Part shown: positions 2-6,273 of the stretch, piece by piece
Layout of the letters: each line of letters begins with the position of its first letter
Numbering within the stretch: the stretch's first letter is position 1
NCBI GenBank assembly: GCA_038826135.1
Contig: JAWBON010000068.1
Span: forward strand, 1-6,273
Source: Candidatus Odinarchaeota archaeon
GTDB taxonomy: Archaea > Asgardarchaeota > Odinarchaeia > Odinarchaeales > Odinarchaeaceae
Direction of reading: 5' to 3'
Length of the DNA stretch: 6,273 bases
Program-made: the position numbers and the translations under genes
The notes under the pieces: model-generated
What the model was told of the DNA's origin: nothing
Database searches by the model: none
Seen by the model: only the letters and a program-made list of their open reading frames with translations

Positions 2-1180
2 AGGGAGTGGCTTTCTGCTCTTATTAGAAAATTAAATTTCAATAATTGTTTAACTTTATTGGAAGAGTTCCCTTTCACTAATCCTGAAGATGTATCTAGA
101 AACCCGATGAGTTTTCTCTCCGTCCCTTTAACTGATATAGTGGGCTTCCACTTCACGGCGGGTACAACCGGTAAAAGGAAGCTTTTATATGTTACAAAAG
201 AGGATTTGGATTTAATCGTGTATAATTATTCTCTGGGTTTTTTATGGAGCGGTATTGGTCAAAGTGATATAGCTCAGATAATGTATTCTTTTGATATTTG
301 GCAGCTCGGATTACTGTTTCAAGACGCTTTTAGAAGGCTTGGAGTTAAAACTATACCTACAGGTAACTTGATTACTTTTCGTGAACAGCAGAATTTTATA
401 GAGGAGTATAATGTCAGTGTTTTAGCTGGGACTCCATCCTATATTTACCAGTTGGCAAGAGCAATTGACTTACAAAATTCTGTTAGGGAGCGCGTTAAAG
501 CTGTTATGCTGGGCGGGGAGGGGCTTCCTAAAACTAGAAGGGAGTATATTCAGGATAGGTTAGGGGGGGAGGTGTTTTTAGGCTATGGTTTAATGGAGAT
601 AGGGGGAGGTGTAGCTTCAGAGTGTAGTATGCATAATGGTTTACATATTTCAACCACGGTGATACCTGAAATAGTTGATATTAAAACAGGTGAACGGGTC
701 GGTGTAGAGGAATATGGGGAGCTGGTTTTAACCTCCTTGGATAGATATGGAATGCCATTTATCCGTTACAGGACGGGGGATGTTACTAGGTTCATAGACG
801 GTGTCTGTGATTGCGGTTTAATTCTTCCAAGAATAGATTATATTAAAGGCCGGCTTGATGACAGGGTGACTCTTGGAACCGCTGAGAAATATTATCCAAT
901 AGTTTTTGAAGAGCTTTTTGAATCCATAGAAGAGGTTATTGACTTTCAAATAGAGGTAACAGGTGTGGACGGCAGGGATGGTTTGAAAATACTGGTTAAA
1001 GCTGATAAGCCTTCAAAGGATTTGGAAAGAAAAATCATTGGGAAATTATATAGTGTAAGCGGTCTTAGAAATGATATTGAAAAAACTAAGACGATTAATC
1101 GTCCTAAAATCGTTTTTACAAATCAGTTAGAGAACTATCCTAAGAGAAAAATTATAATTGATAAGAGGCGGGCTGGTTAG
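2..1180 (+). CDS. Phenylacetate-CoA ligase (PaaK) / coenzyme F390 synthetase-like adenylate-forming enzyme, 5'-truncated by the window edge
   Basis: The frame is open from position 2 (AGG GAG TGG CTT ... TTA TTG GAA), so the TTG at 59 in the ORF track is probably an internal Leu and the true start lies upstream. ANL/PaaK-family motifs: P-loop FHFTAGTTGK (usually H-x-SSGTTG), GTPSY, GGE, YGLMEIGGG, PEIVD-x-KTGE, GELVLTSL...PFIRYRTGD, C-x-CG...GRLDD, and C-terminal KRKIIIDKR. The substrate cannot be assigned. Confidence 0.85.
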   Translation, partial: REWLSALIRKLNFNNCLTLLEEFPFTNPEDVSRNPMSFLSVPLTDIVGFHFTAGTTGKRKLLYVTKEDLDLIVYNYSLGFLWSGIGQSDIAQIMYSFDIWQLGLLFQDAFRRLGVKTIPTGNLITFREQQNFIEEYNVSVLAGTPSYIYQLARAIDLQNSVRERVKAVMLGGEGLPKTRREYIQDRLGGEVFLGYGLMEIGGGVASECSMHNGLHISTTVIPEIVDIKTGERVGVEEYGELVLTSLDRYGMPFIRYRTGDVTRFIDGVCDCGLILPRIDYIKGRLDDRVTLGTAEKYYPIVFEELFESIEEVIDFQIEVTGVDGRDGLKILVKADKPSKDLERKIIGKLYSVSGLRNDIEKTKTINRPKIVFTNQLENYPKRKIIIDKRRAG

Positions 1181-1611
1181 ACCAGTGTTATTTTATGCGT
1201 GAAAGTAGTTTTTATCTGGGGTGTAATCGCTCTTGTTAGGTGGCAGTAGTGAATAGCCAGCTCCAAGCATTCTTTTAACTTATCCTCTTGGCTTTTAAGT
1301 CCGGTTATTTCGAATTGAAATAATAATTCTTTAATATAGTATCCGTCCCTTGTAGACTGAACTTTACTGGTTGCCGCTACATTCAGCTGTGTCAGTTTTA
1401 ACCTCATCTTCTTACTTATGTATAAGTATGTTTCTAGTAAGCATCCTGAAATAGCTGCTAGAAAGATTTCATCGGAGCAATAATGTTTTCCTTCACCGCC
1501 GAATTCTTTTGACATGTCAAATTTTAAAGGCGGATTCTCTTTAAAATAAGCTTGACCACCAGTTTTTTTATCCCATTCTAATTTAACATTATACTCTAAG
1601 TTCTCAGACAA
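1177..1611 (-). CDS. OsmC/Ohr-family protein
   Basis: 144 aa, TTG start with GGTG 6 nt upstream. Family pattern: N-terminal V-x-L-x-W strand, 'D...EFGGEG', 'DEIFLAAISGC' (first conserved Cys) and 'HYCHLTRAI' (second conserved Cys). Confidence 0.8.
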   Translation of the reverse strand: MSENLEYNVKLEWDKKTGGQAYFKENPPLKFDMSKEFGGEGKHYCSDEIFLAAISGCLLETYLYISKKMRLKLTQLNVAATSKVQSTRDGYYIKELLFQFEITGLKSQEDKLKECLELAIHYCHLTRAITPQIKTTFTHKITLV

Positions 1612-1636: not shown

Positions 1637-3061
1637 CTAAGAGGGTGCGGATAGTTTGAATTCATCATGTATTGCTTGAAGTGCTTTTGAAATATCCAGT
1701 CTGGGTATTACTAGGGAGATGTTCATTTCACTACTGCCCTGCGCGATAGCTATAATGTTAATGTTTCTTTCAGCTAGGGATTTGAATATTCTTGCAGCTA
1801 TTCCAGGCGTGTTCAACATGCCCGCTCCAACTACAGCTATAAGGCTTACATCGTTTACAGCGTTAATTTTTATCCATCTGCGACCGAAGAAATCTGAGGC
1901 TTTTAGCACGGCTTCGGATCTATCTTTATCAGCACGGTCAACTACCAGGGTTATGTTATTCTCTGAAGAGGCTTGACTGATCATTATTATGTTAATATTA
2001 TTATTTCCGAGTATTTCGAAAAGTTTAGCGGCTGTTCCTGGAAGTGAAACCATAGCCGCCCCTTCAACGGTGATCAATGCAACATCTTCCTTAGCTGTTA
2101 AAGCTTTAACAATATCTCTTTTAACCTGCCTTTCAGTTGTAAAAGTCGTGTAGTCTGAACTGAGAGGTTTTGAAAAATTTCTTATCTCCATAGGGATTTT
2201 CTTCTCTTCAAGTGGGATAAGGCACATTGGATGAATTATCTTAGATCCGAAGAAGGCGAGTTCCTTAGCCTCCCTGTAGGAGATATTCTTTATAAGTTTC
2301 GCGTTAGGGACGTATTTCGGATTAGCTGTTAGAAGACCGTCTACATCCTTCCAGAGTATAACTTTAGTTTGCTTGAATGATTCAACTATACTGTAGGCTA
2401 TAAGGGTGGCTGTGAAATCGCTTCCGCCTCTACCCAAGGTGGTCACGAACCCGTCTTCACTTTTAGCTAAAAACCCTGTCACTACAGGTATTTCACCGTT
2501 TTTTATAACTGGTATCAGCTGGCTTTCTATAAGCTTTTTTGTCTTATCTAGTTTAGGAAGAGCGTTAGTGTAGTTGCTATCTGTTATTATCAGGTTGTCA
2601 GCTTGAAAGAATCTTACAGGGTGACCCTTAGACTTCAGATAATAGTATAAGATTGAGGTTGAGAAGCGTTCACCGAATGCGATTACTTGATCTGTTAGCT
2701 GCGGGTTTATCAAGCAGAGATCATATATTTTCGTTAACGCTTCTTTTAACTGAGTGGATAGATCGGATAGAAAAGATGAGACTAAATTAAGATTCGCCTC
2801 GTCTTTTATCACTTCGCCTGCAATCTTTAAATGTTTATCTTTCAGTTCTTTAATAACATCTTCAGGCTTTATTGAATGAGTGTTACAGTCTTGCATGAAC
2901 TTTATAAGCTGGTTTGTAACCCCTTGCATAGCGGAAGCTACTAAAATTAAACCACCGTTCTTATAGTTGTCTACTATAGTCAGTATTTTCTCAAAGCTTT
3001 TCTCATCTATAAGACAGCTTCCGCCTAGTTTATGGACTGTTACATTGCTTATCTGGCTCAT
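1637..3061 (-). CDS. lysC: Monofunctional aspartate kinase with two C-terminal ACT domains, resembling the threonine-sensitive Methanocaldococcus-type enzyme
   Basis: 474 aa. Kinase motifs: HKLGGS (KFGG motif), VASAMQGVTNQL, D-x-x-x-x-x-GER, VVTGF...TTLGRGGSDFTA, WKDVDG...ANP, SY-x-EA-x-ELA-x-FGSKIIHP. Two ACT repeats: PGTAAKLFEIL...INIIMISQASSE and PGIAARIFKSL...INIIAIAQGSSE. No homoserine dehydrogenase domain. The allosteric effector is inferred. Confidence 0.95.
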   Translation of the reverse strand: MSQISNVTVHKLGGSCLIDEKSFEKILTIVDNYKNGGLILVASAMQGVTNQLIKFMQDCNTHSIKPEDVIKELKDKHLKIAGEVIKDEANLNLVSSFLSDLSTQLKEALTKIYDLCLINPQLTDQVIAFGERFSTSILYYYLKSKGHPVRFFQADNLIITDSNYTNALPKLDKTKKLIESQLIPVIKNGEIPVVTGFLAKSEDGFVTTLGRGGSDFTATLIAYSIVESFKQTKVILWKDVDGLLTANPKYVPNAKLIKNISYREAKELAFFGSKIIHPMCLIPLEEKKIPMEIRNFSKPLSSDYTTFTTERQVKRDIVKALTAKEDVALITVEGAAMVSLPGTAAKLFEILGNNNINIIMISQASSENNITLVVDRADKDRSEAVLKASDFFGRRWIKINAVNDVSLIAVVGAGMLNTPGIAARIFKSLAERNINIIAIAQGSSEMNISLVIPRLDISKALQAIHDEFKLSAPS

Positions 3062-3099: not shown

Positions 3100-3131
3100 A
3101 TGGTGGGAGCGATGGGATTCGGACCCATGAC

Positions 3132-3151
3132 CTCCGGTTGATATCTTTAAT
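3132..3151 (-). other. tRNA intron 3 (20 nt, non-canonical position 45/46, variable loop)
   Basis: CCGG AA|A TT AAAGATATC AA CCGG AG|G TC. Central helix CCGG/CCGG, 3-nt bulges AAA and AGG, inner helix TT/AA. The outer helix is only a G-U pair, so this is a relaxed BHB. Confidence 0.85.
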
Positions 3152-3159
3152 TTCCGGCT

Positions 3160-3194
3160 TTCTCAGAGTGTTGCTCTTGTGAAGAGCGCGGTCG
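3160..3194 (-). other. tRNA intron 2 (35 nt, canonical position 37/38)
   Basis: Strict BHB. Outer helix CCGGC/GCCGG, central helix CUUA/UGAG (one U-G pair), bulges UA|C and AA|A, inner helix GA/UC, plus internal hairpin GCUCUU-CAC-AAGAGC. Confidence 0.9.
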
Positions 3195-3211
3195 TATAAG
3201 GCCGGCGCTCT

Positions 3212-3228
3212 TTCTGGATCTCTATGTT
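3212..3228 (-). other. tRNA intron 1 (17 nt, non-canonical position 20a/21, D-loop)
   Basis: CTGG TT|A ACATAGAGAT CCAG AA|A GAGC. Central helix CUGG/CCAG with 3-nt bulges UUA and AAA. The flanking helices are weak (relaxed BHB or bulge-helix-loop). Removal restores GCUC-AGCCUGGUUA-GAGC. Confidence 0.87.
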
Positions 3229-3278
3229 AACCAGGCTGAGCTACGCTCCCACACTATTACTAATGGTTATCTAAACAT

Positions 3279-3293
3279 TTTTTAAATATTTAG
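3279..3293 (-). promoter_or_regulatory. Putative archaeal BRE/TATA promoter of the tRNA gene
   Basis: The minus strand reads CTAAATA-TTTAAAAA, with the TATA-like octamer 36-29 nt upstream of tRNA G1. This implies a leader of about 5-8 nt. The AT-rich background lowers specificity. Confidence 0.45.
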
Positions 3294-3298
3294 GTATA

Positions 3299-6256
3299 TT
3301 AACTTGCCCGTTTAAAGAACACTGTCACGTCTTCCCCACTGATATTAAATTTGCTATTAGTATATTCTTCTAGCTTGTTTTCAGCTTCGCTTAATATTTT
3401 CAAGGATACTGCGTTGACTTTGCCTAGTAGCTGGTCTTGAAAAGCCTGAACAGATTCAACTATTAGATTGCTCTTAGTTACTATTTGAAGGATGATTTTC
3501 TCGCTGACATGGTAATTGTTTTGTTTACGAGCGAATTGTATTCTTCTTACAAGTTCTCTTAATATTCTCTCTTTGGCAAGATCCTGGTCTTCGGTTATGT
3601 CTAAATATATTTTATACTCTTTCAAATCCTTTGATTTAAGCCCCTTCCCACTTATCTGCTGATCTGAGACGATAACTTCTTTAACATTCACCATGGATTT
3701 TATGATAGACAATACCTCTTCATTGAATTGAATATTCTGAGATACGATTATTAATTTTCTACATGGCCATCTCAACTTAACATTGTTTTCCTGTCTTAAA
3801 GCTAGACTGTTTTCAATTATCTGTTCAGCTTTCTCCATATTCTGTTCAAGCAGTGTGTCTATTAATTTTTCATCCACATTAGGCCAATCGTTAAGGTGAA
3901 TACTTTCAGGAGCTTCAGGGTTCACGGTTTTAACAAGATAATTATAGATGTAATCTGTTATGAACGGTGTTATTGGTGCCATAATTCTTAGAAGACGCTC
4001 TAATACATAGTAGAGTGTTGATAAAGCGACTGTTTTAGATTCTAAATTCTCCGGGGTTGTCACTCTGTCACGTATGATCTTAATATACCAGTGGCTTAGA
4101 TCATCCATTATAAACTTTTGAAGAAGCCTAGGTATCTGCGGTATAGAGTAGTCTTTGAACACGTCGTTTATTTTTTTAATTAGACTGTTTATTCTTGAAA
4201 TAATCCATTTATCTTCAATCCTTAAAGATAATGTATTCAATGTTTTTGCAGGTTTGAAACCGACTATCTTCATAAAGGTTGTAGCGTAAATATAAGTGTT
4301 ATAGAATATGTTTATTATTCGATCCACGTCACCGATCTCTTTCCAATTGAATTTCATATCTAATCCTGGCTCAGCTGAGCCTAAACAGTAGAATCTAAAG
4401 GTGTCAACGCCGTATTTTTCTGTAACTGTTTCTGGTAGTATAATGTTTCCCAGAGACTTACTCATTGGTTTACCCTCAGGGTCGTTTACGAATCCGTGCA
4501 TGTAAACCGCGTTATAAGGGCATTTTTTGAAGGCGGCTGCGCCTAGACTCATCATCGTGTTAAACCAGCCTCTTATCTGGTCTTTACCTTCTAAAACAAG
4601 GTCGGCGCTTCTCCATTCACTATATGCGGAAGTATCTAACATTGCGGGCAGTGAAGCCCATACAACTGAGCCGCTGTCCACCCACACGTCTAAAACATCC
4701 GGGACTCTTTTCTTCCAGCCACCGCATTCACAACACCATTTTAATTCATCAACCCATGGACGATGCAAGTCATCTGGATGAATACCTGTCTTCTCCTCTA
4801 ATTCTTTAATCGAACCTATAACATCCACACTACCGCATTTATCGCATACCCATACTGGTAGAGGCGTACCCCAATATCTTTGTCTTGAAATACACCAGTC
4901 TTGAACACTTTCCAACCATTTATCAAACCATGGGTTACCAGCCCATTTAGGCGTCCACTCAACTTTAGAGTTTAGAGCACGCATTTCATCAGATAATTTA
5001 CTTATATTAATAAACCACTGTTCAACAGCACGATATATTAGAGGGTTTTTACATCTCCAGCAGTGTGCGTACTCGTGTTCAATCTCACCCTCGTATAAAA
5101 GCAGGTTTTTCCTTCTAAGATCCTTCAGTATTTCTATACTCGCATCTTTAACATGCATTCCAGCATATTTACCTGCTTCAACGGTCATTTTACCTGACTC
5201 GTCTACTGGGGAAAACGCGGGTAAACCGTATTTTGAACCTACTATGAAGTCTTCAGGTCCGTGGCCTGGTGCTGTGTGAACACAGCCTGTGCCCTGCTCC
5301 AGAGTTACGTATTCGTCGCTTAAAATTATTTTATGAGCGTTACTGTAAACTTTACCGAGCTCTTTTTGAAATGGGACCTCTTCTAATAGGCAGTGAACAT
5401 AAGATAAGCCTTGCAGTTTATCTCCTGGAAGCTCCTCCAGAATTTCAAAATTTTTTCCGAGCAGACCTTGTATGATGGATACAGCCATTCCCTTAGCTAG
5501 GATCCAGGTTTCATCCCCCACCTTCGCTCTTATATATGTGTAGAAGGGGTTAACCATTACCGCTATATTAGCTGGCAGCGTCCAGGGTGTTGTAGTCCAG
5601 ATCAATATGTATGTGTTTTTTTCACCGGCTAGTTTAAACTTTACAAAAATAGAGTAATCTGACACAGTCTTATACTCGTATTCGTGTTTAGCTAAAGCAG
5701 TCTCACAACGAGGGCAGAAGGCTAAAGGTCTTAGCCCCTTGTATAAGAGGTTGTTATCATATATTTTTTTTAATCCAAACCAGACCCCTTCAATATACTC
5801 GTTTGTGAGCGTCATGTAAGGTTTATTCCAGTTCATCGCCACGCCGAGTTTTTTAAACTGCTCTGTCATTTTATCTAGATTTTTTAAAGCAAATTCTCTA
5901 CATTTTGAAGTGAATTCGGCTATTCCCTTAGATTCGATGCTTTTCTTATCTTGAATTTTCAATTCCTTTTCAACTTTCACCTCTATCGGTAGTCCATGCA
6001 TATCAAAACCCGGTGTATCCATTACACGGTGACCCGCCATTCTTTTATACCTTAAAATAACGTCTTTCAAAATTTTATTCCAGGCAGTACCTAAGTGTAT
6101 CACACCAGTTGTATAGGGCGGGCCGTCTATAAATAAAAATTCAGGCTTATTCCTAGTGCGCTTACACAGCTTATCATATACTTTGTTTTCCTCCCAGAAA
6201 CTGTATATTTGCTGTTCAATTATTTTTTTCGAATATGTTTTAGGAAGCTCTTCCAT
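3299..6256 (-). CDS. ileS: Isoleucyl-tRNA synthetase, archaeal/eukaryal (type 2)
   Basis: Motifs: DGPPY-x-x-G-x-x-HLGT (HIGH), GFDMHGLPIE, CPRC zinc knuckle, CP1 editing motifs WTTTPWTLPAN and GTGCVHTAPGHG-x-EDF, DWCISRQRYWG, DVW-x-DSG, EGKDQ-x-RGWF, PMSKSLGN (KMSKS) and anticodon-binding LSHWYIKIIRDR. The ATG at 6256 is preferred (985 aa), because the GTG at 6265 used by the ORF track is part of a GGTG SD spaced 6 nt from this ATG. Confidence 0.97.
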   Translation of the reverse strand: MEELPKTYSKKIIEQQIYSFWEENKVYDKLCKRTRNKPEFLFIDGPPYTTGVIHLGTAWNKILKDVILRYKRMAGHRVMDTPGFDMHGLPIEVKVEKELKIQDKKSIESKGIAEFTSKCREFALKNLDKMTEQFKKLGVAMNWNKPYMTLTNEYIEGVWFGLKKIYDNNLLYKGLRPLAFCPRCETALAKHEYEYKTVSDYSIFVKFKLAGEKNTYILIWTTTPWTLPANIAVMVNPFYTYIRAKVGDETWILAKGMAVSIIQGLLGKNFEILEELPGDKLQGLSYVHCLLEEVPFQKELGKVYSNAHKIILSDEYVTLEQGTGCVHTAPGHGPEDFIVGSKYGLPAFSPVDESGKMTVEAGKYAGMHVKDASIEILKDLRRKNLLLYEGEIEHEYAHCWRCKNPLIYRAVEQWFINISKLSDEMRALNSKVEWTPKWAGNPWFDKWLESVQDWCISRQRYWGTPLPVWVCDKCGSVDVIGSIKELEEKTGIHPDDLHRPWVDELKWCCECGGWKKRVPDVLDVWVDSGSVVWASLPAMLDTSAYSEWRSADLVLEGKDQIRGWFNTMMSLGAAAFKKCPYNAVYMHGFVNDPEGKPMSKSLGNIILPETVTEKYGVDTFRFYCLGSAEPGLDMKFNWKEIGDVDRIINIFYNTYIYATTFMKIVGFKPAKTLNTLSLRIEDKWIISRINSLIKKINDVFKDYSIPQIPRLLQKFIMDDLSHWYIKIIRDRVTTPENLESKTVALSTLYYVLERLLRIMAPITPFITDYIYNYLVKTVNPEAPESIHLNDWPNVDEKLIDTLLEQNMEKAEQIIENSLALRQENNVKLRWPCRKLIIVSQNIQFNEEVLSIIKSMVNVKEVIVSDQQISGKGLKSKDLKEYKIYLDITEDQDLAKERILRELVRRIQFARKQNNYHVSEKIILQIVTKSNLIVESVQAFQDQLLGKVNAVSLKILSEAENKLEEYTNSKFNISGEDVTVFFKRAS

Positions 6257-6262
6257 TTTTAA

Positions 6263-6266
6263 CACC
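6263..6266 (-). promoter_or_regulatory. Shine-Dalgarno-like GGTG for ileS
   Basis: The minus strand reads CGGTG-TTAAAA-ATG, matching the geometry seen before the OsmC-like gene. Confidence 0.6.
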
Positions 6267-6273
6267 GCTACCG

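Follow-up and report, generated by a model that had tools for sequence, protein, structure and literature searches.

In the Odinarchaeia lineage represented by the Candidatus Odinarchaeota archaeon MAG (assembly GCA_038826135.1), AUA codons are very probably read by one tRNA alone, a tRNA-Ile with a genomically encoded UAU anticodon, which is predicted from sequence to be specified by positions 3250-3101 of contig JAWBON010000068.1 (the whole contig of 6,273 nt was analysed and is called the window below) and to be interrupted by three BHB introns. This tRNA would replace the agmatidine route, because the lineage lacks both TiaS and tRNA-Ile2(CAU). The gene is real and is predicted to be essential, and its product would be expressed, spliced and charged. 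The evidence comes from the structure and conservation of the gene, from the census of CAU and isoleucine tRNAs in a closed congener, from searches for TiaS and from the use of AUA in the genome.

Structure of the tRNA-Ile(UAU) gene

The first-pass annotation had placed the anticodon at 3198-3196 and had given C-U-UAU-A-A as the spliced loop. Both statements were borne out, since the minus strand reads C-T-T-A-T-A at 3200-3195, with TAT as claimed, and excision of the 35-nt intron (3194-3160) yields this loop. Position 34 carries the same base in four genus assemblies (the MAG and its congeners, one of which is closed).

The precursor was searched exhaustively for BHB motifs, defined as a 4-bp helix flanked by bulges of 3 nt that are cleaved behind their second base, and each of the three introns listed in Table 1 has a central helix paired at 4/4 positions and 3-nt bulges. 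Intron 2 has the strict hBHBh' motif, the outer helix of which is the 5-bp anticodon stem and the inner helix of which has 2 bp; the motifs in the D-loop and the variable region are relaxed, with flanking helices of 1-2 bp. Removal of Intron 1, which carries substitutions and a 2-nt indel among the congeners, leaves the canonical D-loop AGCCUGGUUA. The junction of Intron 3 is ambiguous because CCGG is repeated, and the variable loop is read as AAGUC by the BHB rule or as AGGUC in the alternative; both junctions lead to tRNA-Ile(tat), the anticodon being untouched by the choice. The spliced molecule of 75 nt plus CCA was recognized by ARAGORN as tRNA-Ile(tat), with a clean cloverleaf and all four stems fully paired.

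Table 1 Coordinates of the tRNA-Ile(UAU) gene, its exons and introns, and the upstream ileS region in the window
Feature	Position	Strand	Remarks
Complete tRNA-Ile(UAU) gene	3101..3250	-	CCA encoded at 3103-3101; discriminator A at 3104
Exon 1	3229..3250	-	GGGAGCG acceptor 5' strand, U8 A9, D-stem GCTC, D-loop AGCCUGGUU
Intron 1 (17 nt)	3212..3228	-	D-loop, just 5' of A21; CUGG/CCAG helix, bulges UUA and AAA
Exon 2	3195..3211	-	A21, D-stem GAGC, G26, CCGGC anticodon stem, C32 U33 U34 A35 U36 A37
Anticodon UAU (positions 34-36)	3196..3198	-	
Intron 2 (35 nt)	3160..3194	-	Canonical 37/38 site; CUUA/UGAG helix, bulges UAC and AAA
Exon 3	3152..3159	-	A38, GCCGG (anticodon stem 3' strand), start of variable region
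Intron 3 (20 nt)	3132..3151	-	Variable region; CCGG/CCGG central helix
Exon 4	3104..3131	-	Variable-loop end, T-arm AUGGG-UCCGAAU-CCCAU, CGCUCCC acceptor 3' strand, A73
A/T-rich TATA-like stretch	3275..3290	-	About 30 nt upstream of the tRNA 5' end; found by eye
ileS, archaeal/eukaryotic-type IleRS	3299..6273	-	5' end cut by the contig end

In its unspliced form, the gene scored 43.6 bits as a tRNA against RF00005 (Infernal, E-value mode). It was missed by ARAGORN with and without the intron mode and by Rfam at the gathering threshold, and a genome-wide Infernal search recovered neither this gene nor that of the initiator tRNA. The anticodon call depends on the splice-site positions, because Infernal reaches this score by passing over 24 nt of the D-loop and a further 56 nt behind CUUAUA. 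Infernal's own alignment, which has a single 56-nt insert and a mismatch at A39, was rejected, as its junction is without a BHB and the three-intron solution has BHBs. For the splicing endonuclease, the EndA catalytic domain gave three matches in the genome (two of them at contig ends), i.e., at least two genes, which is consistent with a heteromeric enzyme.

The T-loop UCCGAAU (window 3116-3122) has C at position 55 instead of the near-universal U. The tRNA-Ile(GAU) of the MAG (contig C16, 21581-21683) likewise has C55, in the T-loop UCCAAAU; a T-arm scan found C55 in 0 of roughly 35 other tRNAs of the genome, and U55, the usual base, is present in the UAU tRNAs from other Asgard families.

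Conservation of the gene

Orthologues with 88-91% identity were found in three congeners (species-level genomes). When the four genus genomes were aligned, 1 of the 78 exon columns was variable against 20 of the 72 intron columns (Fisher p = 1.4e-6), and the sole variable exon column is located at the ambiguous third junction; the whole anticodon arm is identical in the four genomes, and Exon 1 is invariant too. The exons are under purifying selection. The same three intron sites are occupied in the sister family, where the helix at 37/38 is CUUA/UAAG, a G.U pair having been exchanged for A-U with the pairing kept. Across six Asgard lineages, the CUUAUAA loop is invariant in the spliced UAU tRNAs, and compensatory pairs are seen in the acceptor, anticodon and T stems (GGGAGCG/CGCTCCC, GCTCCCA/TGGGAGC, GGTCCAT/ATGGACC).

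Census of CAU and isoleucine tRNAs

As the absence of a gene cannot be established from a draft MAG, and as many tRNAs here escape the usual finders, the census was performed in the closed congener (1.42 Mb). An intron-aware caller was used, in which pairing of the acceptor served as the anchor, all BHB combinations were spliced and the products were judged by ARAGORN, and a scan for orphan 3' ends was added. Every standard archaeal anticodon was recovered. Only two CAU tRNAs were found in the closed congener, the initiator (701761) and the elongator Met (581477), each on the minus strand, and the MAG has both orthologues (the initiator at C25:7153-7308 and the elongator Met at C5:12805-12989, minus strand). 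This is the CAU set that had been predicted for a genome in which Ile2 was replaced, and it was thus obtained in the closed congener as well as in the MAG. The isoleucine tRNAs of the closed-congener census are GAU and UAU alone. With both CAU tRNAs assigned to Met, it follows that tRNA-Ile2(CAU) was replaced by the UAU tRNA.

The elongator tRNA-Met(CAU) gene of the closed congener (581301-581477, 177 nt) carries four introns, of which one lies at 38/39 and the others interrupt the anticodon stem, the variable region and the T-loop, and all 485 of its 485 admissible splice variants are called tRNA-Met. This gene was missed by ARAGORN and by genome-wide Infernal, so automated annotation would report the genus as being without an elongator tRNA-Met. 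The initiator tRNA of the MAG begins with AGCGGGG, has the arm GGGG-CUCAUAA-CCCC and contains several introns; its A1 apparently faces A72 and not U72 in the acceptor pair, and its CCA is not encoded, unlike in most tRNA genes here. In the closed congener, tRNA-Pro(CGG) and tRNA-Pro(UGG) (548398-548507 and 592573-592698) have T-loop introns, GGTTCAAA|...|AATCC, because of which these genes are missed by scans anchored on an intact T-arm.

Search for TiaS

Loss of tiaS had also been suggested in the first-pass annotation, and the searches agree with this suggestion. The TiaS_FLD domain (PF08489) gave no match in this MAG, which is 93% complete, nor in the three congeners (one of them closed, 1,418,269 bp) or the sister family. 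The positive controls responded: the same domain was detected in 4/4 archaeal control genomes and in 30/61 genomes of the phylum. A full-length Asgard TiaS query, taken from a relative in the phylum, scored 1015 bits on its own genome and yielded no credible match in the MAG, the three congeners or the sister family (best E = 0.04, over a short stretch only).

Use and meaning of AUA

ATA is the commonest isoleucine codon of the genome (52.9% of Ile codons), with a frequency of 49.9 per 1000 codons vs 17.8 per 1000 for ATG. The hand count made earlier for the ORF at 59-1180 (15 of 35 Ile codons being AUA) proved to be exact, with 15 ATA, 16 ATT and 4 ATC. In the alignment with nine IleRS homologues, the ATA positions of ileS align with I/V/L (37/21/16%), like the ATT and ATC positions, and do not align with M, which makes up 44% of the residues opposite ATG; therefore, AUA means isoleucine.

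The neighbouring ileS gene

The product of ileS was identified by TIGR00392 (934 bits vs the cut-off of 621) and by the Pfam domains tRNA-synt_1, Anticodon_1 and DUF5915. The tRNA-Ile(UAU) gene starts 48 nt past the ileS stop codon on the same strand (spacer 3251-3298), and the TATA-like stretch lying in this spacer may possibly be the tRNA's own promoter. Two named Odinarchaeia MAGs and the genome of Candidatus Borrarchaeum weybense share the order ileS, then tRNA-Ile(UAU); the linkage was not seen in the other IleRS loci compared. The rest of the window contains an AMP-dependent (PaaK-like) ligase truncated at the start of the contig (2-1180, plus strand), an OsmC-like protein (1177-1611, minus strand) and an aspartate kinase that has a pair of ACT domains (1637-3061, minus strand), and no link was seen between the tRNA and these three genes.

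In the archaeal/eukaryotic-type IleRS, one arginine (Arg999 in yeast) bonds the carbonyl or imine at N34 of G, I, U/Psi or agm2C (PMC11685878). The C-terminal RIQFARK of the IleRS encoded here aligns with RIQKLRK of human IleRS, and the Q-x-x-R motif (Q996, R999) is kept. As this wobble-reading arginine is retained, the enzyme would, judging by homology, need no special adaptation for U34. The tRNA itself has A37, A38 and A73, and its D-arm is near-identical to that of the genome's tRNA-Ile(GAU).

The following route from gene to codon is proposed. A transcript with three BHB introns (one at 37/38 and the others in the D-loop and the variable region) would be processed by the archaeal splicing endonuclease, which would excise the introns, and by a ligase, which would rejoin the exons. 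The mature tRNA would have the loop C-U-UAU-A-A and would be charged with isoleucine by the IleRS of the adjacent gene, the conserved arginine of which could, by homology, bond the O4 carbonyl of U34; U34 would then pair with the A of AUA.

Occurrence among Asgard archaea

The closest IleRS loci (79-80% identity) come from genomes named Candidatus Odinarchaeota or Odinarchaeia, and the next tier comprises Atabeyarchaeum and Hermod-, Thor-, Borr-, Sif-, Hod- and Promethearchaeota, all of which are Asgard archaea. Among genomes at least 85% complete, TiaS was found in 0/40 genomes of seven families (0/22 in the largest one) vs 64/70 in the others. The UAU tRNA genes were inspected in five families, namely the two families f1 and f2 of this genome's order, f13, which includes the closed Atabeyarchaeum chromosome, f16, which is Borrarchaeum, and f9, where the gene was detected with a degenerate arm pattern; the 37/38 intron is present in every Asgard UAU gene inspected. 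In f12, the exact 14-mer of the arm is present, by match alone. In total, at least one genome in 6/7 TiaS-less families has the UAU arm. The absence of TiaS and the presence of UAU genes thus recur together in other Asgard families.

No genuine UAU arm was found in the TiaS-positive families, which, the pattern being lineage-specific, means not found rather than absent; the few arm-pattern matches in these families occurred at the control rate. The matches in three TiaS-positive genomes were rejected as chance occurrences inside coding sequence, as were the second CTTATA-arm matches in the three congeners, and one more match, in another genome, turned out to be part of a different tRNA. The Infernal inventory of one f9 genome contained just 25 confident tRNAs, with Ile tRNAs of any kind missing, and was too sparse to bear on the AUA decoder of this family. 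Neither TiaS nor the arm pattern was found in three genomes labelled Hodarchaeota or in the named genomes of Thorarchaeota and Hermodarchaeum, which are all without a completeness figure.

Discrimination against AUG

An unmodified U34 is expected to wobble onto AUG. Comparison of the TruA/Pus1 family and Elp3 identified no enzyme that would stop U34 from reading this codon: the TruA/Pus1 family is represented by one gene each in three TiaS-less and two TiaS-positive Asgard genomes, and Elp3 (752 bits in the closed congener) is found in all five Asgard genomes tested, TiaS-positive ones included, and does not track the trait. On balance, we lean towards the view that AUG is avoided via some modification of U34; the first-pass annotation had suggested an uncharacterised one that may depend on the intron.

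A serious but less favoured possibility is that U34 is left unmodified, that competition from tRNA-Met together with the ribosome limits misreading of AUG, and that IleRS simply accepts U34. For Mycoplasma mobile, experiments have shown that U34 bears no modification and that AUG is kept out by the ribosome (PMC3575796). The same could hold in Odinarchaeum, where no trait-specific modification enzyme was found in the TruA/Pus1 family or for Elp3, and where the IleRS keeps the arginine that can bond O4 of an unmodified U34 (PMC11685878). However, AUA makes up about 5% of the codons and AUG is a third as frequent, so even a low level of misreading would be costly, and the unmodified yeast transcript was charged 40-fold less well (PMC11685878).

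It is rather doubtful that the pairing of U34 is restricted to A by a modification other than pseudouridine, for example an xm5U-type base made through Elp3, whether 2-thiolated or not, or a modification not yet described. In archaea, the U34 of tRNAs for split codon boxes is mostly regarded as modified, and Elp3 occurs in every Asgard genome tested, the closed congener among them, but it is equally present in the TiaS-positive genomes, and a review argues that UAU with a cm5U-type modification would read both AUA and AUG (PMC8879553).

A eukaryote-like solution, which we consider unlikely, would be the pseudouridylation of U34 and U36 on the intron-containing precursor, in which the intron pairs with the anticodon; the resulting PsiAPsi would read AUA and not AUG and would be charged better by IleRS. 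Yeast forms PsiAPsi while the intron is still in the precursor. In every Asgard UAU gene inspected, the 3' end of the 37/38 intron pairs with C32-A35, leaving U36 and A37 bulged, and the IleRS encoded here also retains Q996, the glutamine proposed to bond N1 of Psi34; the modified yeast tRNA was 40-fold more active with an IleRS of this class (PMC11685878). At the same time, there is a single TruA/Pus1-family gene regardless of TiaS and no dedicated Pus1-like enzyme tracks the trait, and introns interrupt nearly all tRNAs of the genus and hence do not set tRNA-Ile(UAU) apart (preprint 10.64898/2026.10.13.758758).

Whichever way AUG is avoided, it is highly improbable that we are dealing with a pseudogene or with an artefact of assembly, or that AUA is reassigned, AUA being read otherwise: the gene escapes the standard tRNA finders, C55 is unusual for a functional tRNA (though tRNA-Ile(GAU) has it too) and the genome is a MAG, but the exons are invariant against diverging introns in four genomes, one of them closed, the stems show compensatory covariation across families, the other Ile tRNA is GAU alone, with two CAU tRNAs and TiaS absent, and ATA aligns with I/V/L.

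Known systems and implications

The separation of AUA from AUG relies on lysidine in bacteria, on agmatidine in archaea and on IAU or PsiAPsi in eukaryotes, and is one of the few points where the chemistry of the three domains differs. According to the original TiaS papers, Nanoarchaeum equitans and Korarchaeum cryptofilum reportedly lack TiaS. In both of these archaea, tRNA-Ile3(UAU) is present in place of tRNA-Ile2(CAU) (tRNAscan-SE 2.0 paper), and a UAU anticodon was recorded in 2/167 archaeal genomes (PMC6000648). The list of precedents in the first-pass annotation (Nanoarchaeum, Korarchaeum and M. mobile) omitted the ARMAN archaea (PMC3239211).

The replacement of tRNA-Ile2(CAU) by a genomically encoded UAU tRNA is common to N. 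equitans, K. cryptofilum and the lineage studied here, and the Korarchaeum gene, like that of Odinarchaeum, has an intron and resembles its own genome's tRNA-Ile(GAU). The differences are that the present gene belongs to another phylum (Asgard, class Odinarchaeia) and is linked to ileS, that it has three introns, not one or none, so that standard finders miss it, and that the trait is common to whole families, in other Asgard classes too, and not to a single species.

ARMAN-2, -4 and -5, which belong to DPANN, are without TiaS and without tRNA-Ile(CAU) (Fujishima et al. 2011; PMC3239211). Their pre-tRNA-Ile(UAU) has the strict hBHBh' intron at 37/38, as here, and was cleaved in vitro by an endonuclease of broad specificity, and the likeness to eukaryotes was already pointed out by these authors (PMC3239211). 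The ARMAN gene has a single intron of 25 nt, whereas that of Odinarchaeum has two more, non-canonical ones, in the D-loop and the variable region; moreover, the Odinarchaeum lineage, unlike DPANN, is a close relative of eukaryotes.

In M. mobile, the enzyme modifying C34 was likewise lost and tRNA-Ile2(UAU) is the sole AUA decoder, but this organism is bacterial, and its IleRS became adapted by the exchange of Trp for Arg in its zinc-binding domain, which archaeal/eukaryotic IleRS lacks (PMC3575796). The eukaryotic cytosolic tRNA-Ile(UAU) shares with the present one the UAU anticodon and the anticodon-pairing intron at 37/38, and eukaryotic IleRS has the same C-terminal wobble-reading arginine as the Odinarchaeum enzyme (PMC11685878). 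In contrast, eukaryotic PsiAPsi is Pus1-dependent (yeast, S. pombe) and no extra Pus1-like gene was found in Odinarchaeum; eukaryotes also read AUA with IAU, while the Odinarchaeum genome has GAU.

The reading of AUA by a UAU anticodon is therefore known in a few other archaea, and its occurrence in Asgard archaea is apparently unreported, as no report of UAU-dependent or TiaS-less AUA decoding in this group was found in the literature outside subscription journals. An October 2026 preprint describes Asgard tRNA genes as intron-heavy, with D-arm introns missed by tRNAscan-SE, and does not mention UAU, isoleucine or TiaS (10.64898/2026.10.13.758758). A review of 2022 treated the UAU anticodon as rescued in eukaryotes only (PMC8879553). 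As the standard finders miss these UAU genes, Asgard genomes will seem to be without an AUA decoder.

Whole Asgard families thus have an AUA decoder that is eukaryote-like in its UAU anticodon and in the intron beside it. Since the TiaS-less families carry intron-bearing UAU genes, the origin of the eukaryotic AUA decoder can be tested by mapping the trait on the Asgard tree. It is a speculative suggestion, and one that we regard as quite unlikely, that the UAU tRNA with the 37/38 intron and the absence of TiaS are ancestral to much of the Asgard phylum, the lineage that founded the eukaryotes included. If this were true, Asgard archaea would already modify U34 and U36 in an intron-dependent manner, and the eukaryotic AUA decoder, with its UAU anticodon and intron-dependent PsiAPsi, would be an archaeal inheritance and not a eukaryotic invention.
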